Assembly (NCBI GenBank): GCA_944391565.1
Contig: CALXUB010000004.1
Coordinates: 46,180 to 110,179 of the forward strand
DNA length: 64,000 nucleotides
Direction of reading: 5' to 3'
From: an uncultured Alphaproteobacteria bacterium
GTDB taxonomy: Bacteria; Pseudomonadota; Alphaproteobacteria; CAAHEQ01; UBA3637
This document shows positions 38,910-58,643 of the stretch, piece after piece. Each line of letters starts with the position of its first letter. The stretch's first letter is position 1. Position numbers and translations under genes: made by a program. A model generated the notes under the pieces. That model ran no database searches. It was not told the DNA's origin and saw only the letters and a program-made list of their open reading frames with translations.

Positions 38910-42649
<3,740 letters not shown>

Positions 42650-43412
42650 CTAGGAAACTCCATTTTTCTGTAAAAGACGATAAGCTTTTCGATACCATTT
42701 CGAGGAAGGATAATTGTAGCCCAGGACGGCGGCTGATCGTTTCGCTTCTTCTTTCAAACCCAAAGCCAAATAGCCGGCTGTCAGGCGGTAAAGTGCTTCT
42801 TCAATATGCATTGTGGTTTGATAATTGCGGACAACATCGGCAAATCGGTTAATGGCGGCGCCGTATTTCTTTTGCTTTAAATAATAACGGCCGATGTCCA
42901 TTTCTTTTCCGCCCAAATGGTTGTGGGTTAAAACCAACTTGTTTTTCACATCTTTGGCATAGGGCGTGTTCGGATAAAGCACAATCAGCCGGTTAAAAGT
43001 TTCCATAGCCATTTGTGTCATATCCTGATCACGTTCCACGTCCGAAATTTGTTCATAATAAGACATGCCTTTTAAATATTGGGCATAAGGCGCATATTTA
43101 TTGCCGGGATGGAGTTGTAAAAAACGGTTAATCGCCAAAACGGCATCGGTGTATTCAGCGTTTTTATAATACATGTAAGCCGACATAATTTGTGCTTTGG
43201 CTGCCCAAGGGGAATAAGGATGTTGCCGTTCAACCTCATCAAAGTATTTAACGGCTTCTTTGTATTCATTTTCTTCGGCATAATCCATGGCTTTGTTATA
43301 AAGTTCAGCCACACTTTTATCTTCCATGACTTTATTTTTATGACCGGAGCAGCCGACGGCTAACGCCAGCAAGAAAATCAATATAAAGCCTTTTTTTATT
43401 AAACAACGCATG
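42650..43412 (-). CDS. bamD: Outer membrane protein assembly factor BamD (lipoprotein, TPR)
   Basis: The likely start is the ATG at 43412, giving MRCLIKKGFILIFLLALAVGCSG with a lipobox. TPR-like repeats are present (ELYNKAMDYAEENEYKEAVKYF; AQYLKGMSYY). The bamD-recN-ligA order is typical of alphaproteobacteria. Confidence 0.75.
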
Positions 43413-43485
43413 CGTTTATCTTCCTTTGTTTTTCTTTTTAAAGAAACTATACCACACTTCGGACAAAGAGAAAGCAAAAAATGTA

Positions 43486-44751
43486 TCAGAACATGTTTTT
43501 TCTGGGTGCGATCGCCAGACAAGGAATGGATTGATCGCTTAAGATTTTACAGGCTGCTTCGGCGTCTTCTTTTGTTTCAAAACCGGATAAGCGGGAACGA
43601 AACAGATTTTGATGCGCCGATACCTGAACGGTGTTTGTTCGGACGTGAAGAAGTGTTTGAGCCGTTGTTGCCTGTTGTAAAGCTTTATCCTTGTTTTGGA
43701 ACGCACCGACTTGAATAGACCATTCAGCCGGCGAATAGTCACCTTGTTCAATTAAAACCGTGTCATCTGCAATGGCAAACGAGGGAATGGACGCCAGCAG
43801 TGTTTGATTTCCTTCTGCCGTTAAACGGTTGACCTTTTCTTTACATTGCGCAATACTTGCCACGATAACAGGGTCGTATGTATCTCGGTGTTGCTTGGAA
43901 ATATAGGCTTTTTTGAAAAAAGGATTATCTCCGTGGCGAGCCAGTTCTGCTTGTTTTTTCTTGACTTTTGCGAATCCGTTGTCCAACAGGACACGCATTT
44001 GACTGTCTCGTTTTTGCGCGGTTTTTTGGCCGATAACAACGCCGACCAAGGTCCGATTATCCCGTTTGGCTGTTGAAATAACGTTATAACCGACGGCAGA
44101 GACAAAGCCGGTTTTAAAACCTTCGGCACCTTTATAATACAACAAAATGTTGTTATGAGAATAATACGTCTTGCCTCCGAATTTAAAAGATTTTGTTGAA
44201 AACAAGGGATAATACTGCGGGAAATGGTTAATCATGGCAATGGATAAAACAGCCATGTCTTTGGCCGTTGTCCATTGTTCGGGGTGATGCAAACCCGAAG
44301 CGTTTTTAAACTGCGTGTGCGTTAAACCTAAGTCTTTGGCAAACGCCGTCATCATTTCTGCAAATTCTTCTTCACTCGGAGCTAAAGCTTCGGCCAAAAC
44401 AACGGCAACATCATTGGCCGATTTGACAATCAGAGCTAAAACAGCTTCACGCACCGTCATGACTGAGCCTGCTTTAACGCCTAACTTAGAAGGCGGTTGG
44501 CGTGCCGCATGTTTCGACACGGGAATCAAATCATCCATTTTTAAAAGCCCTTTTTCCAACGCGTCAAAGGTAATGTAAAGCGTCATGATTTTGGTTAAAG
44601 AAGCCGGGTACTGTTTGGCATCGGCATTCTGCGCTTGAAGAATATACCCGCTTTGAACATCCGCAATCAGAGTCGATGGTGCGGCTTTTGCCGTGCCGAA
44701 ACACAGACAACTTAAAACAACAGCCACACTCAAACTTTTCCAAAAATGCAC
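43486..44751 (-). CDS. D-alanyl-D-alanine carboxypeptidase (PBP5/6 family) with C-terminal SPOR domain
   Basis: It has a signal peptide and the SxxK motif ASLTK. A C-terminal SPOR domain is present (EWSIQVGAFQNKDKALQQA...FRSRLSGFETKEDAEAACKIL). Confidence 0.8.
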   Translation of the reverse strand: MHFWKSLSVAVVLSCLCFGTAKAAPSTLIADVQSGYILQAQNADAKQYPASLTKIMTLYITFDALEKGLLKMDDLIPVSKHAARQPPSKLGVKAGSVMTVREAVLALIVKSANDVAVVLAEALAPSEEEFAEMMTAFAKDLGLTHTQFKNASGLHHPEQWTTAKDMAVLSIAMINHFPQYYPLFSTKSFKFGGKTYYSHNNILLYYKGAEGFKTGFVSAVGYNVISTAKRDNRTLVGVVIGQKTAQKRDSQMRVLLDNGFAKVKKKQAELARHGDNPFFKKAYISKQHRDTYDPVIVASIAQCKEKVNRLTAEGNQTLLASIPSFAIADDTVLIEQGDYSPAEWSIQVGAFQNKDKALQQATTAQTLLHVRTNTVQVSAHQNLFRSRLSGFETKEDAEAACKILSDQSIPCLAIAPRKNMF

Positions 44752-44842
44752 GATTGAACCTCTTTATAAAAGCTTTTTTCATTGTGTCAAATAAAGGTTA
44801 ACGATTCGTTTATGCTCTTTTATCTTCTTTTATCAAAAAAGA

Positions 44843-44872
44843 TTGACAAAAAAATTTTTTTTCTGATATAAT
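44843..44872 (+). promoter_or_regulatory. Near-consensus sigma70 promoter
   Basis: TTGACA at 44843-48, an 18-bp spacer and TATAAT at 44867-72 lie ~40 bp upstream of the ATG at 44911. Confidence 0.65.
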
Positions 44873-44910
44873 TTCCCATGCAATAATGAAATATTAATAA
44901 AGAGGGAACG

Positions 44911-46377
44911 ATGAATAACTCAGAAAAATGGACTTATCAGGCTTATAAAAAAGTCATGGAAGGTGAAGATGGATTTCAAAAGTTTTTGGCTTTAAAAGAT
45001 ATTTATTCTAAGCCGGAACTGTATGGGGATGTTGTTTTGGGGGCCATCGAAGCAAATGATACCTCTTTACTTGTTTCTTTTTTGAGCAATCAAATGATTG
45101 AAACAATTTATCAAACAACCCCCTCGCCGAAAGCCAGTTTTCTCAGTGAGATCTTGGCACAGGGGAAATTAAACATATTTCGGGATATTTTCAGCTTTAA
45201 AAGTTTTTATCCGCAAGAAATTGCTCAGTTAAAAGTATTGGATAAAGCCTTGCAAAATTCAAAGGAAAAGAGAAAATATTTCTATAAGTATTTCGAGGAT
45301 TTCTATTGGGCTGAAAGTCAAATTCACAAAGCGATCAAAGGATTGACCAATTATTCCGTTAAGATACAGACTCCCAAGCTTCTTCGCGTTTCGGAAACAG
45401 GGACCTATCCGCCGGTTGTTTTCGCATCTACCGCATCTCAGACTTATCGGTTTGAAGGCCTGGATCCGGCTTGTGTTCGTGAAAAAGGTGCCTCTGGTGT
45501 TTTGTTTGAGGCGTTTGAACGGATGGAACCCGATTTATCTTATTTAATTGACAAGGATGAAGTATTGAGTGCCGGGCGGTTGGAAACACTCAAGCGTGAA
45601 GTCAGAGAAATGGAAATTGATGATTTTTACAACACGTTTGAGGAGGATATTCCCAAGCTGGAACAGTTAATGGATTTAACGGAAAATTTCTTGCAAAAAC
45701 CGGAAGGCGTTTTGCTGCGGCATTTTATGGATAAAGGGGGCTTTTTTGTGCTTTCTCAGGATGAGGGGCAGGGGGTGCGCGGGATGAGCGCAGGGGGTGT
45801 CTTAATGATGAAAAATGTTCAGGAAAGTACTTTTTATCATGAACTCATCCATGAAATTGAAAAAGAAAAGAAACAAATTTCCGCTTCACCATTGATGAAT
45901 AAAGTTTACGATTATGTTGATTTTAACTCGGAAACACAGAAAGAGGGACCTTTTTCAAACTTTTGGAATGAAATGCTCTGTTTCAAAAAATACTATAATA
46001 GAATGGATAAAAACAAACGCTCGTTTCAATCCGAGATAGTGCCTTTTATGGCATCGCTTTTAAAAGAAAATGTCGAAATGCCTCAGTTGGCTAAGACTTT
46101 GTTGAAATATGTGACCTGTTATGCGAAAGCATGCGTCGAAAAAAATGTTGAGCGTCAAGCCTATTTGGAAAAAGCTCTCGAACGCACGGACATTGATATA
46201 ACCAAATCAGGTGACAAGATGACTTGTTATTTGGAGGACGTCATGAAAAATACCGTGCGTTCTCAGAATGCTTACCGTAATCATTCGCCTGAGAATGATT
46301 TTTCCGATGCTTTGAGAAAACTTCGTCGGGAAAAGTCGTTATTTGAGATTTTGTTTGAAAAGGAACGGAGCCGTTAA
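44911..46377 (+). CDS. Hypothetical protein with HExxH zinc-metallopeptidase-like motif (488 aa)
   Basis: The FYHELIHEIEKEK motif contains HELIH (HExxH). The protein is charged, Lys/Glu-rich and cytoplasmic-looking. I recognise no family. Confidence 0.4.
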   Translation: MNNSEKWTYQAYKKVMEGEDGFQKFLALKDIYSKPELYGDVVLGAIEANDTSLLVSFLSNQMIETIYQTTPSPKASFLSEILAQGKLNIFRDIFSFKSFYPQEIAQLKVLDKALQNSKEKRKYFYKYFEDFYWAESQIHKAIKGLTNYSVKIQTPKLLRVSETGTYPPVVFASTASQTYRFEGLDPACVREKGASGVLFEAFERMEPDLSYLIDKDEVLSAGRLETLKREVREMEIDDFYNTFEEDIPKLEQLMDLTENFLQKPEGVLLRHFMDKGGFFVLSQDEGQGVRGMSAGGVLMMKNVQESTFYHELIHEIEKEKKQISASPLMNKVYDYVDFNSETQKEGPFSNFWNEMLCFKKYYNRMDKNKRSFQSEIVPFMASLLKENVEMPQLAKTLLKYVTCYAKACVEKNVERQAYLEKALERTDIDITKSGDKMTCYLEDVMKNTVRSQNAYRNHSPENDFSDALRKLRREKSLFEILFEKERSR

Positions 46378-47435
46378 GATCGGCTCTGCCCTTCCCGTAA
46401 AAGAGCTGGCAGGGGGTCTTCTGGCTGGCCGTTTAAAAATACATCTATCCGTTTTTGGGCGTTGGCTTCAATATTGCGGTAGAAAATAGAAACATCTCCT
46501 GTATGATAAACATGGGTTCCCAAGTATTCATTTTCATACAGTTCGGGGGTAGGCGGGTTGACAATCAACGCTCCGTTTTCGGGATTTAATACAGCGCCGA
46601 TTAAATGCGGTTTTTCTTCTTTGATATTGCCGTTCTGGTCGAAATAAGCCGTTCCCAGATTTAACTCGGCTTCGGCCGGCGTTGCATCCGTTTTCCAATT
46701 CAAAGGATTGATACCCGGTGTTCCCGGCAAAGCAAACAAATCGTCGATCGCATCGGCGGCCTGCGTGTTCCAAGTGATGATAACTCCCGTGTCTGTTTCA
46801 CCTTTGGCAAATTTGAGCCACGGATATTTTTGTAAGTCACCGTTCATACCGGGACCTCCGATTAAATAAGCCGCTACCATTTTTTTTGCAAAAGGCTGAT
46901 CGAATTTTTCCTTCATCAGATTAAACAAAGCCATGGCACCTTGACTATGACCGAACAAGATAAAAGGACGACCTTGATTTAAATAATCCAGGTAGTATTG
47001 AAAAGCATCCTCCACATCGTCAAATCCGACTTTCATCGGCCCGGGAGCGTTCCCGGCCCGAAGTGCTGTTAAGGCAGTGTTTAGTTCCGTTTGTCGATAA
47101 AAAGGCGCATAAATGTTGGCAAAGTCTTTCATCGTACCGGTATTCATTTTGATGTTCAACAAAGCGGCCAGTCGTTGATCTTCCTGAGTGTGCCAATTCA
47201 TATAAGGACGGTTTTCATCGACGTATATTGTCGGATAAACATAAAAAACATCGACTTTTTTATCTGGTTTCGGTGGAAGCTGAGCCCAGTTGTCCGGCTC
47301 GGCATAATTGATTTTTTGAATTTGTAAAATAGCAGGTGTAGGAAGCGATGCAGTCGGTTGCTGAGCAGCCATGACAGCAGGAGCCAACATTAAAAAAAAC
47401 AAAAGAAGTAATTTTTTCATACGCATTCCTTTCAT
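46374..47435 (-). CDS. Secreted alpha/beta-hydrolase (lipase/esterase-like, GHSQG nucleophile elbow)
   Basis: It has a signal peptide (MKKLLLLFFLMLAPAVMAAQQ). The FILFGHSQGAMALFNLM motif is a GxSxG nucleophile elbow. Confidence 0.6.
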   Translation of the reverse strand: MKGMRMKKLLLLFFLMLAPAVMAAQQPTASLPTPAILQIQKINYAEPDNWAQLPPKPDKKVDVFYVYPTIYVDENRPYMNWHTQEDQRLAALLNIKMNTGTMKDFANIYAPFYRQTELNTALTALRAGNAPGPMKVGFDDVEDAFQYYLDYLNQGRPFILFGHSQGAMALFNLMKEKFDQPFAKKMVAAYLIGGPGMNGDLQKYPWLKFAKGETDTGVIITWNTQAADAIDDLFALPGTPGINPLNWKTDATPAEAELNLGTAYFDQNGNIKEEKPHLIGAVLNPENGALIVNPPTPELYENEYLGTHVYHTGDVSIFYRNIEANAQKRIDVFLNGQPEDPLPALLREGQSRS

Positions 47436-47520
47436 GTTATTCGATTAAAAATCAATGAGCTTGTATCTAGATAAACTTTCTTTCATCATAAAAAAGAACA
47501 CAGGAAAGTCAACTCAAAAA

Positions 47521-49422
47521 TCACCGGCACAAAGCTCTTAGGTTTGTGTAATAAAACGATTTATGTCCGACGCGTCCGCTGTCTAAGAACACATAATTTT
47601 TCGCACAAGTGTTGGAGGAAGTTGTATCCGTCCATGCCATTATACTGTCGGAGGTTGTTCCGGTTAAATGAGCACAAGCATTATCCACGCCTTCTTCGCC
47701 ATTCCAGTTCGGGCAAGCTTCGGACATGGTCACTAATCGCATGCCTTTGCTTTCACAAAAGTTTTTAGCACTCCAATAATACATGTAATCATTCTCCGAA
47801 AGCAGGTACTGGCTTCCATCGGCAGCCGTTATGAAAGTTCCTTCGGCTTTCTGACATGTGCCGGTTCCCTCGACTGTCGCGTGACAATAGGAACTCCCCG
47901 GATAGCTGGTATATTGACAATAATAACCTGACTCATCATGACAATCACTTTGAGAGGTACAGGACATATCTTTCAATGGCAAACATTGTTCGTTTTCTTC
48001 ATCCTGCCAATATCCTTCGTCGCAGATAAAGTTCACTCCGTCACACGTCGCATGTGCAGGACAAGGTGTGCAAAATTCACCGGACAAATATTCATCATTT
48101 TGACAGGCATAGCGGCCGTCGTCTAAACAAAGGGCTTGTAAATTGCTGTAAAAATAGGGTTTGTGACCAACTCTGCCACTATCCAAATAAACGTAATATT
48201 TGGCGCAGTCATTAGCGTTTGAGCTTGTCCAACCCATGACGGCTGATGAATAAGCATTCGTCAGGTTCTGACATGCTCCGTCAACGCCTTCCGTTCCTGA
48301 CCAATTCGGACAAGCCTCTTCAATACGAGCCAAAGCCAGTCCTTTGCTCGCGCAGAAATTTTTGGCAGACCAATAGAACATATAGCTGGATTGAGAGAGT
48401 AAATAACGTTGTCCGTTTTTACCAATGACAATCACTCCATTATTTTTTTTACAAATGCCATCTCCTTCTACTTCTTCATTACAATAAGTCGCACCGGGAG
48501 CATAATTTTGCATTTCACAATAAGTATCTGCTTCGCTGCAATCATTTTGTGCAGAACAATAATTTTTATCGACGCAGCCATCTTGTGCGGAGTTTATTTT
48601 GTATCCTTCTAAACAGGTGAAAGTCATCCCATTGCAAGAAGCATGTTCTGGACAAGGAGTACATATGTTATTCTGTAAATATTGTTCGTTTGAACAAATG
48701 CATAATCCATTTGAACAAATGCCAATTTCGTTTTCTTCACGAATGCACGGCTCTCCATCGGATAAGGCAACACAAACAGCACATCCCTTTGAATCTATTT
48801 TTATTTTTTCACATGGTGTGCAAAGTAAATCGATGCTTTGATTATCGCAAATGGTGCATATTCCATTAGAACAGTATCCTTCTTCACCATGTTCTGTGAA
48901 ACAAGCTGTCGCCGAAGGATTAGGAATACATTGCCCATTGCTGCAAGTTTCACAAGAAGTGCACTCTTCGCTGCATTCTTCCGATGGAATTTCATCATTG
49001 TTGAAAGAAAAAATAAAATGAAGAGTACTTTCTGTTGGACAATTTGTTTCATCGGGTTGATTGTTAATAAAAATTTCTTGGATAGGAGTATGTTTATTAT
49101 TTAATAAACGCTGACATATTCTTTTATCAATTTGTTCAACTTGAACATCAAATCCGTCTTCTAAAATTAGAGTTATAATATTTTTCCCAGATTCTGGAAG
49201 ATAAAGAGGCTTTATAATATCTCCTTGATTTAATCCTTCTCGAGTGACAAGACGTTCAGCCTGTATCATTACATCATTTAAAATTTGATTAGATTCGTGC
49301 CAAGTTAAGGCCATTCTAATGCCTGCAATACTTCCTAAGCTAAGGAGAGCTGCAATCAACAAAACAGACAACAATTCAATCATTGAGCGTCCATAATTTT
49401 GGATATCAGAAAGTCTTTTCAT
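47521..49422 (-). CDS. Type IV pilin/pseudopilin-like protein with large Cys-rich extracellular region containing two EGF-like + C-type-lectin-like repeats (633 aa)
   Basis: The N-terminus is a class III (prepilin) signal, MKRLSDIQNYG|RSMIELLSVLLIAALLSLGSIAGI, with Glu at +5. There are ~60 Cys. Two ~200-aa internal repeats each contain CTPCP[EA]HA[ST]C[ND]G..F.C.EGY and YYWSAKNFC[AE]SKG[LM].L......ACPNW.G.EGVD.AC...W.GL-like lectin elements and SGRVGHK.[FY]YY[ST]NL[QR]ALC. Confidence 0.55.
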   Translation of the reverse strand: MKRLSDIQNYGRSMIELLSVLLIAALLSLGSIAGIRMALTWHESNQILNDVMIQAERLVTREGLNQGDIIKPLYLPESGKNIITLILEDGFDVQVEQIDKRICQRLLNNKHTPIQEIFINNQPDETNCPTESTLHFIFSFNNDEIPSEECSEECTSCETCSNGQCIPNPSATACFTEHGEEGYCSNGICTICDNQSIDLLCTPCEKIKIDSKGCAVCVALSDGEPCIREENEIGICSNGLCICSNEQYLQNNICTPCPEHASCNGMTFTCLEGYKINSAQDGCVDKNYCSAQNDCSEADTYCEMQNYAPGATYCNEEVEGDGICKKNNGVIVIGKNGQRYLLSQSSYMFYWSAKNFCASKGLALARIEEACPNWSGTEGVDGACQNLTNAYSSAVMGWTSSNANDCAKYYVYLDSGRVGHKPYFYSNLQALCLDDGRYACQNDEYLSGEFCTPCPAHATCDGVNFICDEGYWQDEENEQCLPLKDMSCTSQSDCHDESGYYCQYTSYPGSSYCHATVEGTGTCQKAEGTFITAADGSQYLLSENDYMYYWSAKNFCESKGMRLVTMSEACPNWNGEEGVDNACAHLTGTTSDSIMAWTDTTSSNTCAKNYVFLDSGRVGHKSFYYTNLRALCR

Positions 49423-49605
49423 AAATACCTCCTTTTAAAAGATAAAGGAGATTAGAGTTTTGTCAATAAAGTTCATTAAGAGAAGCTATTTTAAAAAAAA
49501 TGTATCATTTAAACATTCAAGTTTGAGTTGATATATTTTATTTGTTTTTTATTAAAATGCATGCTAAAATATACACCTATTTATTTTAAAGAAAGGAATT
49601 AAAAA

Positions 49606-49737
49606 ATGAAAAAATTAGCTTTAACAGCTTGTGGTGGTAGTCGTGGGTATGTTGGAAATCAAAAAGTTTGTGAGAATGATTATTTTCTAGGAGTTATTTC
49701 AATTTCTGAATTATTCTCTCCTTGCACAAAAAAGTAA
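49606..49737 (+). CDS. Small predicted lipopeptide (43 aa)
   Basis: It has an AAAGGA RBS. It encodes MKKLALTACGGSRGYVGNQKVCENDYFLGVISISELFSPCTKK with lipobox LTAC. A hairpin terminator follows. It is below the ORF-track size cutoff. Confidence 0.35.
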   Translation: MKKLALTACGGSRGYVGNQKVCENDYFLGVISISELFSPCTKK

Positions 49738-49750
49738 ATTTGAATAATAC

Positions 49751-49788
49751 GAAAAGACCTTTGCTAAAGTGCAAAGGTCTTTTTTTAT
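49751..49788 (+). terminator. Rho-independent terminator
   Basis: The hairpin AAAGACCTTTGCtaaagtGCAAAGGTCTTT is followed by TTTTTTT. Confidence 0.7.
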
Positions 49789-49913
49789 GTTTTAAAAGTG
49801 TTAATGATATGTAAGTATGTATTTGTGATACATAAAAATAAAAAAACTTTATCTTTATGTACGTCAATGTTGTGGAATAGTATTTAAAGAGACAAAGAAA
49901 ATGAACTTTATAT

Positions 49914-49966
49914 TGGTGGGCGTAAGAGGACTCGAACCTCTGACCTTTACGATGTCAACGTAAACA
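49914..49966 (-). tRNA. 3' fragment (~53 nt: anticodon arm to CCA) of tRNA-Val(GAC); likely prophage att-site remnant, not an intact gene
   Basis: The minus-strand reading is TTTACG-TTGACAT-CGTAAA (anticodon loop with U33 and GAC) / AGGTC / AGAGG-TTCGAGT-CCTCT (T arm) / TACGCCC-A-CCA. No matching 5' acceptor or D arm lies upstream. An integrase gene lies ~550 bp away. Confidence 0.6.
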
Positions 49967-50103
49967 GTATAATGAAAATAATTTTTATTTTCAACGTGTT
50001 ATTTTTTTAAAAAATAAAATTGCCCAATTTTTGCCCAATTAAAAAATAAATTTACTTTTTCTTATAAAAAATTATAATATCGTTCTCAAAAGAAGGAGAC
50101 TTT

Positions 50104-50499
50104 ATGAAGTATTGTTTTTTATTATTATTCTTGTTTCTGATCGGTTGCTTTAATGGAGAATCTCTTGAGGAAATTAATAAAGCATCTTCTAAAATAGTTT
50201 TAAATGAGAAATGTGAAAATGTTTCTGCTTTTGAAGTTTTTCAAGTCCTTGATAAATTTGTATTAGCCCATACTTGTGATAGCAATGATTATAAATTTTG
50301 TTCGGGGTTAGTTGTTTACATTATGAAAGAGAAAAATAAAATTTATTATAATGATCAAATTATTCATGTTCCTGACGGTAAATGTCCCGAATATTATGAC
50401 ACGTTTACATATGAAAGTTCTTTAGGGTCAAGAACTGTTCCGAAAGTGAAATGGTCACATAAAGAGATTCATAATTCCGCCAAGAAACAAGAGAAGTGA
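50104..50499 (+). CDS. Small lipoprotein (131 aa), AT-rich, likely prophage cargo
   Basis: The lipobox is LFLIGCFNG. The gene has low GC content and lies between attL and int. Confidence 0.45.
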   Translation: MKYCFLLLFLFLIGCFNGESLEEINKASSKIVLNEKCENVSAFEVFQVLDKFVLAHTCDSNDYKFCSGLVVYIMKEKNKIYYNDQIIHVPDGKCPEYYDTFTYESSLGSRTVPKVKWSHKEIHNSAKKQEK

Positions 50500-50501
50500 A
50501 A

Positions 50502-51602
50502 TCAGATTTTATTAAGTGCAGTTGCTTCATGGTGCTTCGAAAAGGTGGCATAGCGTTGAACCATTTTTATTGATTTCCAACCTCCTAATTTTTGAAGAGT
50601 TAAAAGGTCCATGCCGGACATAATACATCTAGATGCCCAGTCATGTCGCCAGTCGTGAATGCGCATTTTTTTCCCATTGCTGTTTCGAGGGATAAAACCG
50701 TGTCTTTGTTCAAAACGTTTTAATGCTAATGTGTGTGCTTTATGAAGTGGTGTCCCACCTCCTCTTATTCGAGTGTCGCAATATGGAACATTTTTGATTG
50801 TTAAAAAAACTTTTCCAGATTTCGGTTTGTTTGCTCTGATCCATGTTCTTGCTAAAATCCAAAAAGTTTTCCGGTGCATTGGAACGTTTCGTGTTTCTCC
50901 GTTCTTACTTTTTACAATATCAATTGTTCGGTTCGGAAAGTAAACATCAGCCCAATCTAGTTGGAGCAATTCTTGTTCACGAAAGCCTTGAACAGCGTAA
51001 ATTTCAAACATAGGCCGAGCGTGCGTAGAGTAACAATCTAATAAAAGAGTGCGAGTTTCATTATCTAGGTGAAAAACGACATTGTCATTTCCTCTTTTCC
51101 TCGGTAATTTTTGAAATTCAAATCCAAGATCATTTGCCGCACATCTGATTATTGCCATTATCGTGTCCCTATAACGATTTGTTGTTGTTGGTGCCAAGTG
51201 TTGTTTTTCCCTTAGAAAATCTCTCCAGGCTGTTTTAATGTCTGATATGCGTATGTTTGAAAAATAAGGACGTAATATCTCGATTTTATTAATTTCACCG
51301 GCTTTTAACTGGTTATTAATAAGATATATTTCTAAACATTGATCAAATGTTATATCTTGTGGGTGGGACGTATGTCCTGTTTTAATATTGGTCCTAATTT
51401 TTTCTTCTAACTCGTGAGCATATTCCGCTGCTTCTGCTTTTGTAGTAAATCCTGTACTTTGCTCCGGGACGTTAATTGACTGTGAACCAACTTTAATCGT
51501 TCCACGTACCGAGTAGATGCCTTTCTTTCCTCTTTGTCGGATATGTAACACTTTTCTTTTTCCTTTTGTAATGTTTCGAAAATTATTTCCTTGAAGTACC
51601 AC
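50502..51602 (-). CDS. int: Tyrosine-type site-specific integrase
   Basis: The C-terminal catalytic region HDWRHDWASRCIMSGMDLLTLQKLGGWKSIKMVQRYATFS contains the H-x-x-R and terminal Y of the RHRY family. It lies adjacent to the tRNA fragment. Confidence 0.85.
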   Translation of the reverse strand: MVLQGNNFRNITKGKRKVLHIRQRGKKGIYSVRGTIKVGSQSINVPEQSTGFTTKAEAAEYAHELEEKIRTNIKTGHTSHPQDITFDQCLEIYLINNQLKAGEINKIEILRPYFSNIRISDIKTAWRDFLREKQHLAPTTTNRYRDTIMAIIRCAANDLGFEFQKLPRKRGNDNVVFHLDNETRTLLLDCYSTHARPMFEIYAVQGFREQELLQLDWADVYFPNRTIDIVKSKNGETRNVPMHRKTFWILARTWIRANKPKSGKVFLTIKNVPYCDTRIRGGGTPLHKAHTLALKRFEQRHGFIPRNSNGKKMRIHDWRHDWASRCIMSGMDLLTLQKLGGWKSIKMVQRYATFSKHHEATALNKI

Positions 51603-51736
51603 CCGCGACGCATGGGCTTTATCCCTCGTTTATTAAGCCAATTTCTTGTATTTCGAATGGGATTTAATGTCGTATCGTATTTGAGTAAAAAGGCTATCTC
51701 ATTTAAGGATATGGATTGGACTTCTTCAAATTTCAT
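51407..51736 (-). CDS. Possible excisionase/AlpA-like small DNA-binding protein (overlaps int 5' end in another frame)
   Basis: The sequence MKFEEVQSISLNEIAFLLKYDTTLNPIRNTRNWLNKRGIKP has a helix-turn-helix flavour. It overlaps the int start by ~195 nt, so either this ORF or the integrase N-terminus is overcalled. Confidence 0.25.
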   Translation of the reverse strand: MKFEEVQSISLNEIAFLLKYDTTLNPIRNTRNWLNKRGIKPMRRGWYFKEIIFETLQKEKEKCYISDKEERKASTRYVERLKLVHSQLTSRSKVQDLLQKQKQRNMLTS

Positions 51737-52062
51737 TCTTCCTCCTTTACTAGGCATATTTCTTCGATCTCTTCATCTTCAATTTCTGTATCTCCTCGAA
51801 AATCTTCTTCCCAATCCTTATCCGCCTTGTAAGCCTTTTTCTCCGCCTCATCTTCAGAAAAAGCCATAATTTCTAATTCGCATTTAACGGAAACGGATTG
51901 TATTGCATTCATTTTCACCAGATATTTCTTAGGTTTTCCTTCTCGTCTGAAGTTTTCATCGACATGTTTTCGAACAAAATCGGTAAACTTACCATATCCG
52001 GCATCTTTGAAATCATTCAAATCAATTTTTAGGCCATTTTTCGTTGTAATTATCATCTCCAA
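51733..52062 (-). CDS. Acidic hypothetical phage protein (109 aa)
   Basis: It is an ORF of E/D-rich composition lying in the early left operon. Confidence 0.35.
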   Translation of the reverse strand: MEMIITTKNGLKIDLNDFKDAGYGKFTDFVRKHVDENFRREGKPKKYLVKMNAIQSVSVKCELEIMAFSEDEAEKKAYKADKDWEEDFRGDTEIEDEEIEEICLVKEEE

Positions 52063-52283
52063 TCCCCAATTTTGTTAGGAAGGGACAGGTTTTGAGTTTT
52101 TTGTCTTTTCCCGCCGCCTTCCGATGCTTTATTGCACTTTCCCTTCTAAAAAGGCAAAAGCAGACTCTTTCGCCGCAAGAGGAAGGGATTTGTCATTTAT
52201 AACTTTTAAAGCTTCGATAATGCTTTGGGAGTTTGGACATCCGTTGATTTTGACGATTATCAAACTTTCTTTTAAAATATCAG

Positions 52284-52529
52284 TCATTTTCCCTCCGGTT
52301 CAAATTTATTAAAGACGTATTTTGTTTCAATTTTAACGGATTTACCGCATTTGCAATGAAATCCCCATCCGCCTTCTACTTTTGTGGTGATGCCATTTTT
52401 TACGTATGAGACGTCTAATTGATAAAAAAGATCTTTAGTCGACACTCGGTTAGCTCGTCCACAGTATGGGCATAGGCCGTCAAAATTAACGGAAAGCCAT
52501 AACTTTTCCTGAAGCGATAAATTATTCAT
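52284..52529 (-). CDS. Zinc-ribbon protein (81 aa)
   Basis: The CPYCGR ... CKCGKS pair forms a C4 zinc ribbon. Confidence 0.4.
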   Translation of the reverse strand: MNNLSLQEKLWLSVNFDGLCPYCGRANRVSTKDLFYQLDVSYVKNGITTKVEGGWGFHCKCGKSVKIETKYVFNKFEPEGK

Positions 52530-52532
52530 GAT

Positions 52533-52793
52533 TTATACCCTTTCACCATAAAACCATTCTTCCCAAGCTTCAACGATTTCAGGGAAAGCTATTTTCAAGC
52601 GGTGGCGATTGTTTGAATCGGCTTTGCCGATCAGGTCAATGAGTTTACACATAAAAGAGGTGCTTTCTCCTCTTTGCCATTCTTTTATCTGTTCCCGTGC
52701 TTCTTCTTTTGTCATAATGTCTCCTTGTTTCTCTCTTTTTCTTTTAAACTCGCTGGTATTCTTTGACCGATTGAAACATGATCCAACTGGCAA
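52533..52793 (-). CDS. Hypothetical phage protein (86 aa)
   Basis: It is an ORF adjacent to the zinc-ribbon gene in the same operon. Confidence 0.35.
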   Translation of the reverse strand: MPVGSCFNRSKNTSEFKRKREKQGDIMTKEEAREQIKEWQRGESTSFMCKLIDLIGKADSNNRHRLKIAFPEIVEAWEEWFYGERV

Positions 52794-53056
52794 CGGCCTT
52801 TACTCTGTGAGAGAATACCTTTCGTGTGCGAGCAACACGGTTTACTTTTGAAAAAGATAGCCAGTGGAAAGCTAATTCATCGCAACCCTTCGCCATACCG
52901 GCCGGTTTTATATTCCCAAGCATCAACGCGGGATTGGCCTTTTTCGCACGCAACTAAAAGCAACATGACGCTTAACAAAACAATGAAAATGTAAATTGCG
53001 GTGTCTTTGATCATTATTGTTTTTCCTTTTCAAAAGTTTTTTAATCACAAAAGAAT

Positions 53057-53073
53057 TATACGATAATCGTATA
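53057..53073. promoter_or_regulatory. 17-bp palindromic operator TATACGATAATCGTATA (copy 1)
   Basis: This is a perfect inverted repeat. A second copy lies 36 bp downstream and a third lies in the cI/cro intergenic region. Confidence 0.6.
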
Positions 53074-53092
53074 AAATAAGTCAATAGAAAAA

Positions 53093-53109
53093 TATACAAT
53101 AATCGTATA
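53093..53109. promoter_or_regulatory. Operator copy 2, TATACAATAATCGTATA (1 mismatch)
   Basis: It shows the same palindrome family. It is followed by the same AAAATxA flank as copy 1. Confidence 0.55.
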
Positions 53110-53289
53110 AAATGACTAAAAAGGCTCAAAAGCGTATCTTTTTCGAAACAGAATTGCGGAAAGAAGTGGGGGCGAAAAATAACTTTTCGAACTTAAAAAA
53201 ACGAATCGGAGTTAAAAAAATATGAAAAAAAGGATTGACAATACCGCAATAATGACATACAATTTAAATATACAGAAAGGAAAACGAGA

Positions 53290-53487
53290 ATGCCGATACG
53301 ATATACTTTTGAAGATTTGAGAAAAATGATTGAAAAAGACGGGTGGTTCTTAGTGCGGGTTAAAGGAAGTCATATGCAGTTTAAGCATGCATCGAAAGTT
53401 GGGATTGTGACAATCCCTGCTCATCGGGGGATTGTTCCGCCAGGCACAGCAAACAGTATATTGAGGCAGGCAGGTTTGAAAAAATAG
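53290..53487 (+). CDS. hicA: HicA mRNA interferase toxin
   Basis: It is a 65-aa protein. The KGSHMQFKH motif carries the HicA catalytic His. An RBS AAAGGAAA is present. Confidence 0.85.
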   Translation: MPIRYTFEDLRKMIEKDGWFLVRVKGSHMQFKHASKVGIVTIPAHRGIVPPGTANSILRQAGLKK

Positions 53488-53496
53488 GAGGTTGCT

Positions 53497-53925
53497 ATGT
53501 TAAAATACATTGCTTTATTTGAAACGGATAAGGAAACGGGGCAGGTTGGTGTTGTTTTTCCCGACGTGCCGGGATGTTTTTCCGGCGGTTCGAACTTTGA
53601 TGATGCTTTGCGGAATGCACATGAGGCGTTGGCTTTGCATTTGGATGCATTGGCTGATGAAGGGCAAGCTCTTCCGGTTCCTCGGAGTTTGGAGGATATC
53701 AAAAAAGAGTGGGATGAATGGTCAGATTGGCAAAATTATGATTTTCTCGTCTCGCCGGTCAGCTATATTAAGTTTCGTAAGCCTAAAAAGTATACGCTTT
53801 ATTTGGACAGCGATTTGGTCGCAGTTGTCGATTCTGTTTCCAAAAATCGGTCGGCTTTTTTTAACGAAGCGGCAAGAACGGTGTTAGGGCAGAATGTATC
53901 AAAAACGAGATCGCACACACTATAA
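53497..53925 (+). CDS. hicB: HicB antitoxin (RNase H-like N-domain + RHH-like C-term)
   Basis: It starts MLKYIALFETDKETGQVGVVFPDVPGCFSGGSNFDDALRNAHEALALHL. It has an AGGAGG RBS. It lies immediately downstream of hicA. Confidence 0.8.
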   Translation: MLKYIALFETDKETGQVGVVFPDVPGCFSGGSNFDDALRNAHEALALHLDALADEGQALPVPRSLEDIKKEWDEWSDWQNYDFLVSPVSYIKFRKPKKYTLYLDSDLVAVVDSVSKNRSAFFNEAARTVLGQNVSKTRSHTL

Positions 53926-53933
53926 TCCCAACT

Positions 53934-54569
53934 TTATGTCTTGCTTTTGGGCTTTTTCTTACGCGATGTTTTAACGGCCCGAACGTCTGACGTTCCAAAG
54001 GCATCATAACCTGTGAGAGCGTTCACAAAATCCGGCAACTCAATCAGCTCACCATTGTTGTCATATATGTCTTCAATATTTGTGCTGAGAAATGTTCGGC
54101 TGGCATGGCGCAAAAGGCAGGTTCCTTGAAAGTAGAAACGTGTTTTGCCGTCCTTATAAATTTTGTGGAGAATAACGCTTCTTTCTGTATAAACGCCGGC
54201 CGCATTTCGGTAGTTAAAATTGATTGGCAATCCTTCGGCTGATTCCCAGACAATTACGCCGAAGTCTGGAAGGTCAAAATCATCATCTTCTTCCGGTTGC
54301 TGTTTTAGTTGGGGCGTTGGCTTTGGGGTGAACGGTTCTGCTATTTGGTTGCCTTTTATAATAACCTTAACGAGACTAATAATTAAGCCGATAAACAAGG
54401 AAAGCATGAGATAGGAAAGAAGTGCCATTTTAAGATTTTCTTTAAATCCAGCGGAAGAGGAGATAAGAGAAATGATAAAACCCAGGATGCATGGAAATGA
54501 AGCTCCAATAGCTCCTTGTTTTATGCTTTTTGTCATTATCTGCAACGTGATTTCTTGTTCTTTTTTCAT
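53934..54569 (-). CDS. Membrane-anchored protein with WYL-like C-terminal domain (211 aa)
   Basis: Two N-terminal TM helices are followed by INFNYRNAAGVYTERSVILHKIYKDGKTRFYFQGTCLLRHASRTFLSTNIEDI. This fits the WYL-domain pattern (Y.d..G..t.R.v.P..l....g..Y..g.C..r...R.F....I). Confidence 0.4.
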   Translation of the reverse strand: MKKEQEITLQIMTKSIKQGAIGASFPCILGFIISLISSSAGFKENLKMALLSYLMLSLFIGLIISLVKVIIKGNQIAEPFTPKPTPQLKQQPEEDDDFDLPDFGVIVWESAEGLPINFNYRNAAGVYTERSVILHKIYKDGKTRFYFQGTCLLRHASRTFLSTNIEDIYDNNGELIELPDFVNALTGYDAFGTSDVRAVKTSRKKKPKSKT

Positions 54570-54664
54570 GTTTTCTCCTCTTAGATGTATGTTCTTGGTT
54601 TACAATAAAATGTGTGTAAAAGCAATTGGTTAGTCTAAAAATTCGTAATTAATTTTGATAAAAA

Positions 54665-55000
54665 TCAAGTTTTTTTTCGAAAATAAAGAAGCATACGTTC
54701 GTTGGGAAGTTCTTTTGGTGTTTTTAAAAAATACATAATGTGTTTGTATTTAAACCGTGTTATTCCTTTCGTCGAGCTGAAATTCCAGTGCTTCCTCAAA
54801 TATCCATCGATTTTTTGTTCGGTGACGTGAAGTTCTGCGGCTTTTAGAGATATTTCAGACCGTAAAGATTGATATTCATAATAAGTAATGGGGGTCAGAA
54901 AGTAAAGAATAACAGCCAGGCACAGCATAAAAAACACAAAAACAAGATGATAAAAAAAGGTGTTTTTTTTAAAGAAAAAGAAACGGGCGTATTTTTGCAA
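54665..55000 (-). CDS. Small membrane protein (111 aa)
   Basis: It has a hydrophobic N-terminal helix (FYHLVFVFFMLCLAVILYFL). It lies between the WYL-like gene and the repressor. Confidence 0.35.
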   Translation of the reverse strand: MQKYARFFFFKKNTFFYHLVFVFFMLCLAVILYFLTPITYYEYQSLRSEISLKAAELHVTEQKIDGYLRKHWNFSSTKGITRFKYKHIMYFLKTPKELPNERMLLYFRKKT

Positions 55001-55133
55001 TCCGAGAGATTGACGACAAAACAGGACTCGGATTTTGTAAATTGCACCGGTTGCGGTGGCGTTTCATGCGATTTTATGTCTGGAAGATCATTTACAATTT
55101 TTGCGAATTTTTCTTTATCGATCATTAAACTTC

Positions 55134-55607
55134 TCACTGGTTGACTACAGAATGGCGATATGCAAAATCGGCGATATTATAGACTTTTGCTTTTTTCTCC
55201 GCTGCCGGCGTATCTTTGACGTCATCATATATCATGTAGGCAAGCTCTAATCCTAACTGTGCCGGTAATACTTTATGGCGATCCGCTGCCCAATTGGTCA
55301 ACATCTCAATCAGTTCAAATAATTCATCCTTAGGGATATTGTTATTATTGCTGGATGCGTTGTGAGTTGTCGCATTCCAAAGTTCTTCTTCAGATATTCT
55401 TCCAGAAACAAAATCGAGAAAAGCCAATGTATCGAAATTCAAGAAAGATGCTGCTTTTCGCACATGTTCAATTTTTAAGTTCCAGCAACCTTTCTCTAAA
55501 TCTGATAAACGTGGCTGTCGAACGCCAAGCGCAGCGGCTAATTGCGTTTGCGTTTTTCCAAGCTCTTTTAAACGGCGTTTCAGCCAAAAAACTTTTGTCT
55601 CATTCAT
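55134..55607 (-). CDS. cI-like phage repressor (HTH_XRE N-term)
   Basis: The sequence LKRRLKELGKTQTQLAAALGVRQPRLSDLEKG is an XRE-type HTH. It is divergent from the cro-like gene and the operator palindrome lies in the intergenic region. Confidence 0.75.
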   Translation of the reverse strand: MNETKVFWLKRRLKELGKTQTQLAAALGVRQPRLSDLEKGCWNLKIEHVRKAASFLNFDTLAFLDFVSGRISEEELWNATTHNASSNNNNIPKDELFELIEMLTNWAADRHKVLPAQLGLELAYMIYDDVKDTPAAEKKAKVYNIADFAYRHSVVNQ

Positions 55608-55690
55608 AAATTAAATATATCCGAAAATCGAATATAGCACAAGGGGAAAAAAATATTATACGGTTTATGTAAAAAATATATTGACTCATT

Positions 55691-55707
55691 TATACGATTA
55701 TCGTATA
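55691..55707. promoter_or_regulatory. Operator copy 3 TATACGATTATCGTATA overlapping a TTGACT-17bp-TATAGAT promoter for the cro-like gene
   Basis: TTGACT at 55681-86 and TATAGAT at 55704-10 flank the palindrome. The palindrome sits between them. Confidence 0.6.
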
Positions 55708-55730
55708 GATTGGGAAGGTGGGAGGTTGTA

Positions 55731-55940
55731 ATGTCAATCAATTTTAACAAAATTAAGGAAAAAACAAGCTTTCGGAGGTTCGCATCTGAAATGGGTGTGC
55801 CTTATACGACTTTTTTCACATGGTTAAAGAATAAAAAGGTGCCTGTTTGGAGAATCCATCAATTGGAATGTGCGGCCAAACGATTGAATATTGATTTGTC
55901 CGGTTGTCATGAGGTTTCTTGTGAGGATAGAAAAGGTTGA
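55731..55940 (+). CDS. Cro/YdaS-like small HTH protein
   Basis: It has a GGGAGG RBS. The sequence SFRRFASEMGVPYTTFFTWLKNKKVP has an HTH flavour. It lies in the position of lambda cro. Confidence 0.55.
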   Translation: MSINFNKIKEKTSFRRFASEMGVPYTTFFTWLKNKKVPVWRIHQLECAAKRLNIDLSGCHEVSCEDRKG

Positions 55941-56040
55941 TCAAAGTGCTTTTTTTAATTTTATGTGTGTTCAGTTTCTGCCTTTTTTGCGTATTCGTGC
56001 GCGAAATGGCTGAAGCCTTTTTAAACATTGAGGAGGAAGA

Positions 56041-56214
56041 ATGAAAATAAAAGACAAACTACAAACGGCGGCGGCTCGTTTAATAAAAACGGATGTATTG
56101 ATGGCTGAATTATCAAATAGGGACGGGATTTCCTATCGTTGCATCGATAAACAAAACTATCGCATGCGGGTGGCAGGTCCGGCTCAAATTTTAATCAGAA
56201 AGGGAGAAAAATGA
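56041..56214 (+). CDS. Small phage protein (57 aa), sub-threshold ORF
   Basis: It has a strong GAGGAGGAAGA RBS. Its stop overlaps the next gene's start in ATGA, which indicates translational coupling. Confidence 0.4.
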   Translation: MKIKDKLQTAAARLIKTDVLMAELSNRDGISYRCIDKQNYRMRVAGPAQILIRKGEK

Positions 56215-56456
56215 CGCAAATCGATCAAACTGAATCAACTCGTTTGAACTCTTATTTTGACCGAATTGAGCGGTTGGAAGAAGAAGTAAAAGGCATTCGA
56301 GCCGATATTCGGGAAATTTATGCCGAAGCCAAAGGTGATGGATTCGATCCGAAAGTTATGCGACAAGTATTGCGCTTGCGCAAAATGACCCCGGCAGATC
56401 GGGCAGAAGCAGAGTTTTTGTTGGATGCTTACAAATCAGCACTGGGGATGGAATGA
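56211..56456 (+). CDS. DUF2312 (UPF0335) family protein
   Basis: The sequence TESTRLNSYFDRIERLEEEVKGIRADIREIYAEAKGDGFDPKVMRQVLRLRKM is characteristic of this alphaproteobacterial phage-associated family. Confidence 0.7.
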   Translation: MTQIDQTESTRLNSYFDRIERLEEEVKGIRADIREIYAEAKGDGFDPKVMRQVLRLRKMTPADRAEAEFLLDAYKSALGME

Positions 56457-56839
56457 GACTGTTTTTTAAATTTCCGGGTATTCCCGTTCCAAAAGGCAGA
56501 CCGAGGCTGATTGCACCGGGAGTTGTTTATACGCCGGCCAAAACAAAAAGTTATGAAAAATTGATCGGGACGTTGGCACATGTTGGAATGGGTGCAAAAA
56601 AAACTTTGGAAGGTCCGCTTTATGTCGAATTGACGGCCTTTTTGCCGCAGCCAAAACATGCCAAATGCTCTTTGCCCGTTGGAAAACCTGATATCGACAA
56701 TTTATTGAAAAGTGCGTTGGATGGTTTGAATCGAATTGTTTGGCGAGATGACAGTCAAATCTGTCAATTATCGCTGCAAAAACAATATGCCGCGAACCCG
56801 CGGTTGGAGATAAAAGTAGAGGAAATTACATGTATTTAA
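56453..56839 (+). CDS. rusA: RusA-family Holliday junction resolvase
   Basis: The sequence PVPKGRPR...GKPDIDNLLKSALDGLNRIVWRDDSQICQL matches the RusA catalytic core. Its start overlaps the upstream stop in ATGA. Confidence 0.75.
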   Translation: MRLFFKFPGIPVPKGRPRLIAPGVVYTPAKTKSYEKLIGTLAHVGMGAKKTLEGPLYVELTAFLPQPKHAKCSLPVGKPDIDNLLKSALDGLNRIVWRDDSQICQLSLQKQYAANPRLEIKVEEITCI

Positions 56840-56982
56840 AGAAAGAAGATCCGGATACGTATTACTTTTACCGCTACGTTGCTTGGTTGGAACGAGAAAT
56901 TCGTAAACAAGGCCATCGATGGAAAGAAAAGAAACGCCATTTGCGGTGGCTTTTGAATGCGCGCCAAAAAGGGCGTGTTTGA
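56830..56982 (+). CDS. Small basic phage ORF (50 aa), sub-threshold
   Basis: It encodes MYLKKEDPDTYYFYRYVAWLEREIRKQGHRWKEKKRHLRWLLNARQKGRV. It overlaps the end of rusA. Confidence 0.25.
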   Translation: MYLKKEDPDTYYFYRYVAWLEREIRKQGHRWKEKKRHLRWLLNARQKGRV

Positions 56983-57068
56983 CCCGTGGTCGGGAACCGT
57001 GCAGGAAACGGTTAAATAATATGGCGGGATATTCCTGTATGCCCGCCACCTAACAGGAAAGGTTAAAC

Positions 57069-57794
57069 GTGAGAGACAGTTTTATTTTTTATAAAAGTTT
57101 TGCTGAGGCCGCGCAGCTTTTAGGGGACAAAGCGCGTTTAAAACTTTATGACGCAGTTGTAGAGTTGGCTCTAAGTTGTCCCAAAGATGAAGCGGAGTTA
57201 AACCAACTTTGTGCCGAAATTGAAACAAGATTGAAACAATATCGGAACGTTTTTGCGCAATTTTTATTAATTAAGCCTCAAATTATATCTAACCTTTTTA
57301 AATACTTTAACGGTTGCAAAGGGGCAGATTTCGGACATCTCGGGGCTTCATACGGAAGACTTGGCGGACGTCCGAGGAAAAATAACGAAAACCCCCCTAA
57401 TGAAAATGTAAATGTAAATGTAAAAAAAGAAGAAATTCCCAAAGAAAAAAAATCAATAATACAAAATCCGAATTTAGCTAATTCCGAACAGGAAAAGGAA
57501 ATTTTATGTCAAAGGGCGGTCGCGTGGTGGAATACTGTCGCTGAATTTTACGGACTTCCAGGCATCGAAGAAATAACACCGCCTCGTTTTTCAAAGTTGT
57601 CGGCACGGATTAAGCAAGCCGGAACGTTGAAATCTTTCGAAAGGATTGTTGAAAATGCTTTGGCCGGATCGACATTTTTGACAGGCCGACAAGAAAAATC
57701 AACGTGGCGCGCGGATTTTGATTTTTTCCTGCAAGAAAACAGTTTTCAAAAGGCGCGTGAAGGAAGCTATACAGATGTGAAGGAGGCCAGCTAA
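57069..57794 (+). CDS. Hypothetical phage early protein (241 aa)
   Basis: It is an ORF with an RBS (GGAAAGG) and a GTG start. It contains a basic GRLGGRPRKN segment. I cannot assign it. Confidence 0.4.
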   Translation: MRDSFIFYKSFAEAAQLLGDKARLKLYDAVVELALSCPKDEAELNQLCAEIETRLKQYRNVFAQFLLIKPQIISNLFKYFNGCKGADFGHLGASYGRLGGRPRKNNENPPNENVNVNVKKEEIPKEKKSIIQNPNLANSEQEKEILCQRAVAWWNTVAEFYGLPGIEEITPPRFSKLSARIKQAGTLKSFERIVENALAGSTFLTGRQEKSTWRADFDFFLQENSFQKAREGSYTDVKEAS

Positions 57795-58276
57795 TGGGTG
57801 TTGATGATTTGTTTGAAGCACGAAAAGAACGGCAGCGTATTGCGCTTGATTTTCTGTTTAACCGTATCAAAAAAACATATAAAACCTTTGAAATTCCGGA
57901 AGAAGACGAACTGGATGAATGGCTTATCGCTTGTCAAGGGATGAGCCAAGATGAGCTTTTGACGCAATTCAAGCTATACAAAGCCAGTTTCCCATATGAT
58001 GCTCCGCCGACAGCAAAGGTCTTTTTTGAAGCTTCTTCTGCCGGAAAAACAACAATAAATGCATGTTCCAAAGCGATATCGCCCGAAAACGAACTTTATG
58101 AGCTTTTGAAAACGCGCCGCTTTGTCGTTTACGGGGACGTAAAATGGGCATTCCGGCAAATGGTTTCGGATTTTATCGGAATTTACGCTGAACTTCGGAA
58201 TAGTGATTTTGCCACAATTTGCCAAAACATGCGAACAAATGGCTGGTGGGATAAAAAATTGGAAAGATATTTGTAG
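57794..58276 (+). CDS. Hypothetical phage protein (160 aa)
   Basis: It is an ORF coupled to the upstream gene. Confidence 0.4.
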   Translation: MGVDDLFEARKERQRIALDFLFNRIKKTYKTFEIPEEDELDEWLIACQGMSQDELLTQFKLYKASFPYDAPPTAKVFFEASSAGKTTINACSKAISPENELYELLKTRRFVVYGDVKWAFRQMVSDFIGIYAELRNSDFATICQNMRTNGWWDKKLERYL

Positions 58277-58283
58277 CGCGACG

Positions 58284-58643
58284 ATGGGGAAACACAGAAA
58301 GCATAAGACGCATTTACCTGATCGGTTTCCGTTTAAAACGGCGGAAGAAAATGTAATTGCCGGCGTTATTATGCAGGCATGGTGTGATGCTTTTATGCGG
58401 TGTTCCGAACAATCTTATGTCGGCTTTCACGAGAAAAAAGAGCAGAAAACAGCTCGTCAAATGTTTGAGGGTCGTGGAGAGTGGCGGCGGTCTTTGAAGG
58501 ATTTATGCGCGGCCATTCAGATTCAAGATACGGATTTGGTGAAAGCGTATGTTGAATACAAAAAAATGCGTTTGAAAGGTGCTACGAAAATAAGTCCGGC
58601 AAAAGCTGGTATTGCTTTTTTAAAACGATTGAAGGAGGAGTAA
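58284..58643 (+). CDS. Hypothetical phage protein (~119 aa)
   Basis: It is an ORF. I chose the ATG at 58284 to avoid overlap with the previous gene. Confidence 0.35.
   Translation: MGKHRKHKTHLPDRFPFKTAEENVIAGVIMQAWCDAFMRCSEQSYVGFHEKKEQKTARQMFEGRGEWRRSLKDLCAAIQIQDTDLVKAYVEYKKMRLKGATKISPAKAGIAFLKRLKEE

Follow-up and report, generated by a model that had tools for sequence, protein, structure and literature searches.

The question raised by this locus is whether a partial tRNA gene in an AT-rich junction marks the point at which a prophage entered the chromosome of its host, an uncultured gut alphaproteobacterium, and whether the short reading frame beside it is a genuine gene. The window, that is the whole 64,000-nt stretch of DNA analysed, has a G+C content of 43.2%, compared with 25.0% in the junction region examined here (49423-50103), and the AT-rich character reported for the junction in the initial annotation was therefore borne out. 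That annotation had placed a prophage attachment site in this region, marked by a piece of a tRNA-Val(GAC) gene, with a 43-aa lipopeptide gene just outside it. The features concerned are the following, loci used for comparison being given as L numbers.

47521-49422, minus strand: host ORF for a 633-aa Cys-rich protein, which adjoins the intact tRNA in three other genomes (L008, L009 and L033).
49423-49605, no strand assigned: AT-rich host intergenic region separating the divergent 633-aa gene from the lipoprotein gene.
49606-49737, plus strand: 43-aa deletion allele of a 53-aa small lipoprotein gene (DUF4223-like), in host DNA.
49751-49784, no strand assigned: intrinsic terminator hairpin, 14 pairs (5 G-C) with a T run.
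49914-49963, minus strand: displaced 3' fragment of tRNA-Val(GAC), very probably the attL core, corresponding to tRNA positions 27-76 with 50/50 identity.
49964-50103, no strand assigned: phage-side att arm, very AT-rich, with two exact copies of TTGCCCAATT.
49964-64000, no strand assigned: left 14 kb of the prophage, which continues past the window.
50104-50499, plus strand: prophage lipoprotein of 131 aa, with a signal peptide ending in the lipobox LIGC, between the att site and the integrase gene.
50502-51551, minus strand: tyrosine integrase, 349 aa in other assemblies, with the open frame running on to 51602.

On the minus strand, 49914-49963 agrees at 50 of 50 bases with the intact 77-nt tRNA-Val(GAC) of L007-L012 and L033. 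Read in order, it consists of the anticodon stem and loop (TTACG-TTGACAT-CGTAA, with the anticodon GAC in the loop TTGACAT), the variable loop (AGGTC), the T arm (AGAGG-TTCGAGT-CCTCT), the 3' acceptor strand (TACGCCC), A73 and CCA. Folding of this sequence gives two hairpins, the anticodon hairpin and the T hairpin. The 52-nt fragment string occurs a single time in the window and is absent from 100 shuffles. No tRNA was called by ARAGORN in the entire 64-kb window, so that no complete tRNA is present at the position of the fragment, and the match to the Rfam tRNA model is both partial and below threshold (49923-49971, minus strand, 24.2 bits vs a gathering score of 29). These results agree with the earlier claim that only the piece from the anticodon arm to the CCA end is present, on the minus strand. 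The tRNA 3' piece is thus real, but its length is 50 nt and not the 53 nt first given, because base 49964 is A in the window and C in the tRNA. An exact-match scan with 46 nt of the fragment against 185,579 species genomes returned six matches, all in MAGs of uncultured Alphaproteobacteria, one in each, and each lying in an intact 77-nt tRNA-Val(GAC); the single match in JGI metagenomes (L017) is also a native tRNA-Val. One match of the block per species-representative MAG implies that the cell probably needs the gene restored and that its loss is probably costly.

Comparison of the left flank with unoccupied sites allowed the junction to be located exactly. In L033, a near-identical strain of the same species found by look-up of the window's DUF3089 protein, identity to window positions 41492-49628 is 99.2%. 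It is 100% over 49614-49963, after which the 5' half of the tRNA follows, and an intact tRNA-Val is called by ARAGORN at the position of the window junction. Identity ends at 49963, after which the tRNA continues with C and the window with A. Since the flank of the window runs into an intact tRNA-Val there, L033 represents the attB of this species in its unoccupied state. The left flank of the window is also found, at 77-82% identity, in two sister species (L008 and L009), with the 488-aa, DUF3089 and 633-aa genes and the small lipoprotein gene in common, followed by an intact tRNA-Val at the same position. Here also, similarity to the window breaks at 49963, the 5' edge of the fragment. The prophage-side junction is therefore 49963/49964. 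The host-side junction lies at the CCA end; it appears at 49912 in comparison with L001, where 2 nt past the CCA are common by chance, and at 49919 in comparison with L006. The window junction was found again in independent assemblies, at 100% in L003 and 99.7% in L004, which makes an assembly error unlikely.

These empty sites, the exact break at 49963, the integrase and phage genes adjoining it and the junction in a second host, described below, support the attachment site that had been proposed. We put at roughly 90% the probability that window 49914-49963 is the attL of a temperate myovirus-type prophage in a chromosomal tRNA-Val(GAC) gene, beside a host lipoprotein allele that is probably non-functional.

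The second host is represented by L001 (GCA_964308455.1), in which the same prophage is present at 99.0% identity from window position 49912 onward (49912-60498), behind another left flank. This flank consists of an aminoacyl-tRNA synthetase gene and a radical-SAM/PqqD cluster, then homologues of the Peptidase_S11 and 633-aa genes, which have only ~70-76% DNA identity to those of the window. The species representative L012 holds the L001 flank at 95-96% identity together with an intact tRNA-Val there, that is, an empty site. Because L001 has the identical junction and L012 its empty site, the same phage used the same tRNA in two host species, each of which has its own downstream flank joined to the 50-nt block. 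The high identity of the phage, compared with that of the shared flank genes, implies recent spread across species. It has also to be considered whether the fragment could have nothing to do with the present prophage, being instead a long-standing tRNA pseudogene or a scar left by an earlier element; the true att of the prophage would then lie elsewhere. The tRNA is indeed a hot spot, at which other insertions abut the 3' end in L006 and L012. However, the 5' edge of the fragment is exactly where similarity to the empty site is lost and where, in two host species, phage-specific DNA begins, while 50 nt with 0 mismatches is unlike a decaying relic, so that this origin is highly improbable.

A different explanation was prompted by L006, which belongs to the same species (97.8% identity) and shares the left flank only up to TGGTGG (49919), after which the sequences diverge. 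The fragment might be the attP copy of a phage inserted at a secondary, non-tRNA site where no tRNA gene ever stood, a view with which the travelling of the fragment with the phage into two flanks (those of the window and L001) would also agree. This candidate was rejected and is hardly credible, since L033, L008 and L009 hold an intact tRNA-Val at the exact position, as L012 does for the L001 flank. Moreover, L006 keeps the terminal CCACCA of the tRNA, as would be expected had a different element inserted at its very 3' end. On this ground, a second kind of element appears to occupy the extreme 3' end of tRNA-Val in L006, and the window fragment is accordingly best read as the attL of a phage that entered the tRNA gene itself.

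Other insertions were observed at the same tRNA. The junction in L006 (15034-16167) corresponds to window 49919/49920, and beyond it the DNA is different and encodes a DuOB-domain protein and a DUF488 protein. In L012, CCACCA and a ~48-nt terminator region are duplicated (6044-6100 and 7213-7266), ~1.16 kb apart, around a 216-aa gene. No integrase was found between the two CCACCA-terminator copies of L012, and the duplication could be a cassette or an island remnant. Two proposals may be taken jointly here. One temperate phage, in 98-99% identical copies, would lysogenise at least two well-separated species of uncultured gut Alphaproteobacteria through a 50-bp tRNA-Val(GAC) block identical in six species-representative MAGs, and the tRNA-Val 3' end would in addition be a stacking site for other, integrase-less-looking cassettes (L006, L012). 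For the two together, we judge the balance to be even.

The recombination module is located directly beside the junction, with the integrase gene 540 nt from the att core. The integrase matches PF00589 (8.4e-23) and phrog_1 'integrase' (5e-43), and the motifs GFR, SKNGETR, HDWRH, GGWKS and QRYA provide the full catalytic set (R, K, HxxR, W, Y). Scores against the Xer and integron NCBIfam models are far below the cut-offs. The nearest integrases among sequenced phages have at most 30% identity, and in IMG/VR there was no exact match to the 52-nt fragment and no relative of the integrase or the phage. Target specificity is therefore not transferable from a characterised relative, and no free-phage attP is readable from IMG/VR. 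The nearest solved structure is the catalytic domain of the HP1 integrase (1AIH), a marginal match with E ~1e-3 over 50 residues in the HxxR...H/W...Y region. Haemophilus phage HP1 and Salmonella phage P22 integrate into tRNA genes, and their attP contains a tRNA 3' segment starting at the anticodon arm. The present phage differs from both in its target tRNA and in its type, with a lambda-like head and a Mu-like contractile tail. No excisionase was recognised.

The phage-side att arm accompanies the phage in L001, L002, L003 and L024, regardless of the host flank. Its two exact copies of TTGCCCAATT lie 11 nt apart (50020-50040) and may be arm-type integrase sites. Across the window TTGCCCAATT is not enriched (12 matches vs 11.9 expected), so that what suggests this role is the tandem arrangement of the pair beside the core. 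In L026 (2075-4779), the early region is 99.6% identical to the window and diverges at window 51720, where a different integrase of 390 aa is encoded. The end of L026 adjoins a tRNA that reads as tRNA-Lys (anticodon TTT), its CCA end toward int. With another integrase and another tRNA in L026, the integrase/att module has been swapped between near-identical phages.

The process of integration can be proposed as follows. The attP would hold a 50-bp copy of tRNA positions 27-76, which the tyrosine integrase would recombine with the tRNA gene. As in the tDNA integrations classed as anticodon-centred, strand exchange would probably occur in the anticodon loop, between the inverted repeats of the anticodon stem. 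The original 3' part of the tRNA would then stay on the downstream host flank, giving the fragment beside int, and the phage-borne copy would complete the tRNA at attR, so that the cell would keep a working gene. At attR, the regenerated tRNA-Val(GAC) is predicted to read, in the same orientation, 5'-GGGCGTGTAGCTCAGGTGGTTAGAGCG and then the 50-nt block. The block extends from position 27, which is precisely the first base of the anticodon stem, to the CCA; because of this start, the element is tentatively placed in the anticodon-centred class. Since the phage and host copies are identical, the crossover is not mappable within the block.

According to the Islander study (Hudson, Lau and Williams 2015, PMC4383910), the target gene is interrupted by integration and made whole again by island sequence, the regenerated gene and the displaced fragment marking the ends of the island. 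Three crossover locations are described there, namely the anticodon loop, the T loop and the T/acceptor junction; of the 3919 islands, 2083 are anticodon-centred (PMC4383910). The tDNA islands of that study share with the present element a tyrosine integrase near one end and a displaced 3' tDNA fragment. The identity block from the anticodon stem to the tRNA 3' end, read here at the left end only, is shared with the Islander 'A' attP class. The element differs from those of Islander in the low identity of its integrase to those of sequenced phages and in its host. It is a very well-known kind of integration, and the assignment, though correct, is ordinary.

The far end of the prophage would lie beyond the window, with attR ~36.7 kb to the right, past 64000. 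In contig CAYBFI010000042.1 (GCA_964308455.1), the modules from int to lysozyme extend across 35.15 kb from attL; the contig was read to position 8479, in the lysozyme gene, ~1.5 kb before the predicted prophage end. A search with the tape-measure protein led to P0001 and to locus L018, which ends ~1.5 kb before the predicted end. No match was obtained in a protein search with the 122-aa N-terminal fragment of the DNA_circ_N protein. The search with the 309-aa tail protein returned representatives of other phages only (P0031 in L019, P0033 in L020-L022 and P0032 in L023), with no end at tRNA-Val. Other contigs bear on attR indirectly. The related phage contig L019 runs past its lysis genes and terminates within the 3' end of a different tRNA, arranged as attR is expected to be. 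The Logan contig L002 (36,740 bp) starts exactly 30 nt inside the block, and L024 ends likewise. Stops of this kind are expected of a k=31 assembly graph wherever the block leads into two different sequences within a sample; lysogens mixed with non-lysogens would produce the same k=31 stops.

Sister contigs carry, downstream, lambda-type portal and capsid genes, sheath, tube, tape measure, Mu-like baseplate, tail fibre and lysozyme, and on its gene content the prophage is of myovirus type and complete-looking. Only its left 14 kb lies in the window and attR is outside the DNA read, which leaves room for the view that the prophage is a defective remnant, its far end deleted or rearranged, with no matching attR or regenerated tRNA beside it. 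Against this stand the full set of head, tail, baseplate, fibre and lysis genes in the sister contigs, the 98-99% phage identity in several samples and two host species, which points to recent spread, and the single copy of the block in each of the six species-representative MAGs, with its probable cost of loss. A remnant is thus improbable, and the phage integrated at tRNA-Val is presumably active.

Within the window, the prophage contains int, HicA/HicB, cI-like and cro-like repressors, GapR, RusA, a ParB-methyltransferase, and a terminase with small subunit and GpA-type large subunit. The HicA/HicB toxin-antitoxin pair is in the prophage early region (window 53290-53925), and related phages (L019-L023) have RelB/YafQ pairs near the lysis genes. 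The 131-aa lipoprotein is encoded as an identical protein in six contigs and has no match in Pfam, PHROG or NCBIfam. L024 (12019-12020) has the same att arm and an integrase with 99.1% aa identity, and is without window 50089-50425. Because the lipoprotein gene is absent there despite the same integrase and att arm, it is regarded as an optional moron. Variant insertions were seen at window 51720-51741 in L013 (1-154), L024 (10321-10719), L026 (2071-2457) and L028 (1621-2416). They consist of one or two genes of ~130 aa between a 107-aa gene and int, are absent from the window, and give only faint or weak Pfam matches to Tad2-like. At 63497-64000, just after the large terminase gene, the window shares with L014 and L015 (11991-13827) an insertion of ~1.9 kb that L013 and L016 do not have. 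Its products are a 349-aa protein (HATPase_c_2, weak), a DUF4325 protein and one of 148 aa.

On the host side, the genes left of the junction encode a Peptidase_S11 protein, a 488-aa protein, a DUF3089 protein and the 633-aa Cys-rich protein. The last has no Pfam or NCBIfam match, and its look-up gave no record. By eye, its hydrophobic N-terminus resembles that of type IV pilins. The protein has two Cys-rich halves that repeat one another, and Cys-rich genes resembling it are found on the other side of the tRNA in L009, L012 and L033. Similarity over the 5' part of this gene (window 48900-49400) is a mosaic. Over 48900-49250, L006 of the same species falls to ~65-70% identity and the more distant L009 is at 100%, and over 49250-49400 the pattern is the opposite. 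This reversal suggests recombination within the gene for this Cys-rich surface protein. The intergenic region at 49423-49605 retains at least 98% identity in L006, L009 and L033. Promoter-like hexamers are present at 49508-49537, with further ones just upstream of the fragment on the minus strand. Their number in the junction is not above chance (8 found vs 5.3 expected from shuffles), and no promoter is therefore claimed, the minus-strand hexamers included.

The reading frame at 49606-49737 has the elements ascribed to it earlier, namely a ribosome-binding site (AGGA 8 nt upstream of the ATG), a lipobox (LTAC at residues 6-9) and its own terminator at 49751-49784. Two terminator-like sites were found vs 0.1 expected. 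The hairpin scores on both strands, with a weak tail on the minus strand, and before integration it lay between the lipoprotein gene and the then convergent tRNA-Val gene. In L006, L008, L009 and L033, a full-length 53-aa allele is present, reading MKKLALIAVFASTLALTAC followed by GGSRGYVGNQKVCENDYFLGVISISELFSPCTKK, with LTAC at residues 16-19 and 18 residues before the Cys. It can be observed that the window, L003 and L004 have lost 30 nt in frame, and with them IAVFASTLAL, the hydrophobic core of the signal peptide. On either side of the deleted stretch are 11-nt direct repeats ATTAGCTTTAA, and slippage between these repeats would leave MKKLALTA before the Cys. The lipobox Cys of the 43-aa frame is therefore residue 9, preceded by 8 residues compared with 16-20 in most other family members, and inspection reveals no hydrophobic core of normal length. 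Because MKKLALTA, by the rules for signal peptides, is too short for a lipoprotein signal, the 43-aa allele is probably non-functional, with export and lipidation lost. Processing of the 53-aa prolipoprotein should, as far as can be judged from its sequence, yield a lipopeptide of ~35 aa that has two additional conserved Cys.

The gene itself is conserved. Exhaustive phmmer with the 43-aa product gave 10 representatives at E <=1e-3, 7 of which are 50-67 aa long. In the family alignment, the lipobox Cys is nearly invariant, and the GxRGxxG motif, VCxN, LG, S and PC are conserved. The signal peptide is of full length in 7 of the 8 aligned relatives; P0036 has a shorter N-terminus and P0041 is without the lipobox Cys. 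Between L008 and L009, the gene differs at 8 synonymous and 1 non-synonymous positions, indicating purifying selection. The 53-aa allele resembles DUF4223 (PF13978) in length, lipobox and conserved Cys, and matches profile positions 1-50 of 54, but with 23.1 bits (E 6.7e-5) it remains below the 27-bit gathering threshold of Pfam. For the 43-aa allele there is no Pfam match at E <=0.01, and DUF4223 has no mention in the literature searched. The suggestion of a genuine unannotated micro-protein therefore holds in that a real, conserved small lipoprotein gene is present, but it is already called in other assemblies. Likewise, the '43-aa lipopeptide' belongs to a lipoprotein family, but the window allele has lost 10 residues of the signal peptide. 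That the 43-aa frame is nevertheless a working micro-protein, either cytoplasmic or exported by another route, is unlikely. Its frame, ribosome-binding site and terminator are undamaged, no conserved residue of the mature part is missing, and the same deletion occurs in three independent assemblies (window, L003 and L004). These three, however, are near-identical and probably one lineage, only 8 residues are left where nearly all relatives have a full-length signal peptide, and simple slippage between 11-nt repeats accounts for the deletion. A crippled allele of the conserved lipoprotein gene is the preferred interpretation.

The understanding of tRNA-targeted integration is unchanged by this locus, and the main value of the analysis lies in precise annotation. 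The left end of the prophage can be placed exactly (49963/49964), with tRNA-Val(GAC) as its attB. The intergenic 'gene' is accounted for as a small, conserved lipoprotein gene in which a deletion has occurred, and swapping of the integrase/att module is shown among near-identical phages. For studies of the gut microbiome, one phage is linked to uncultured alphaproteobacterial hosts of at least two species. If the sharing of this phage and its tRNA-Val block between species is true, it would offer a first phage-host handle for a clade without cultured members, along with an integration site ready for use.
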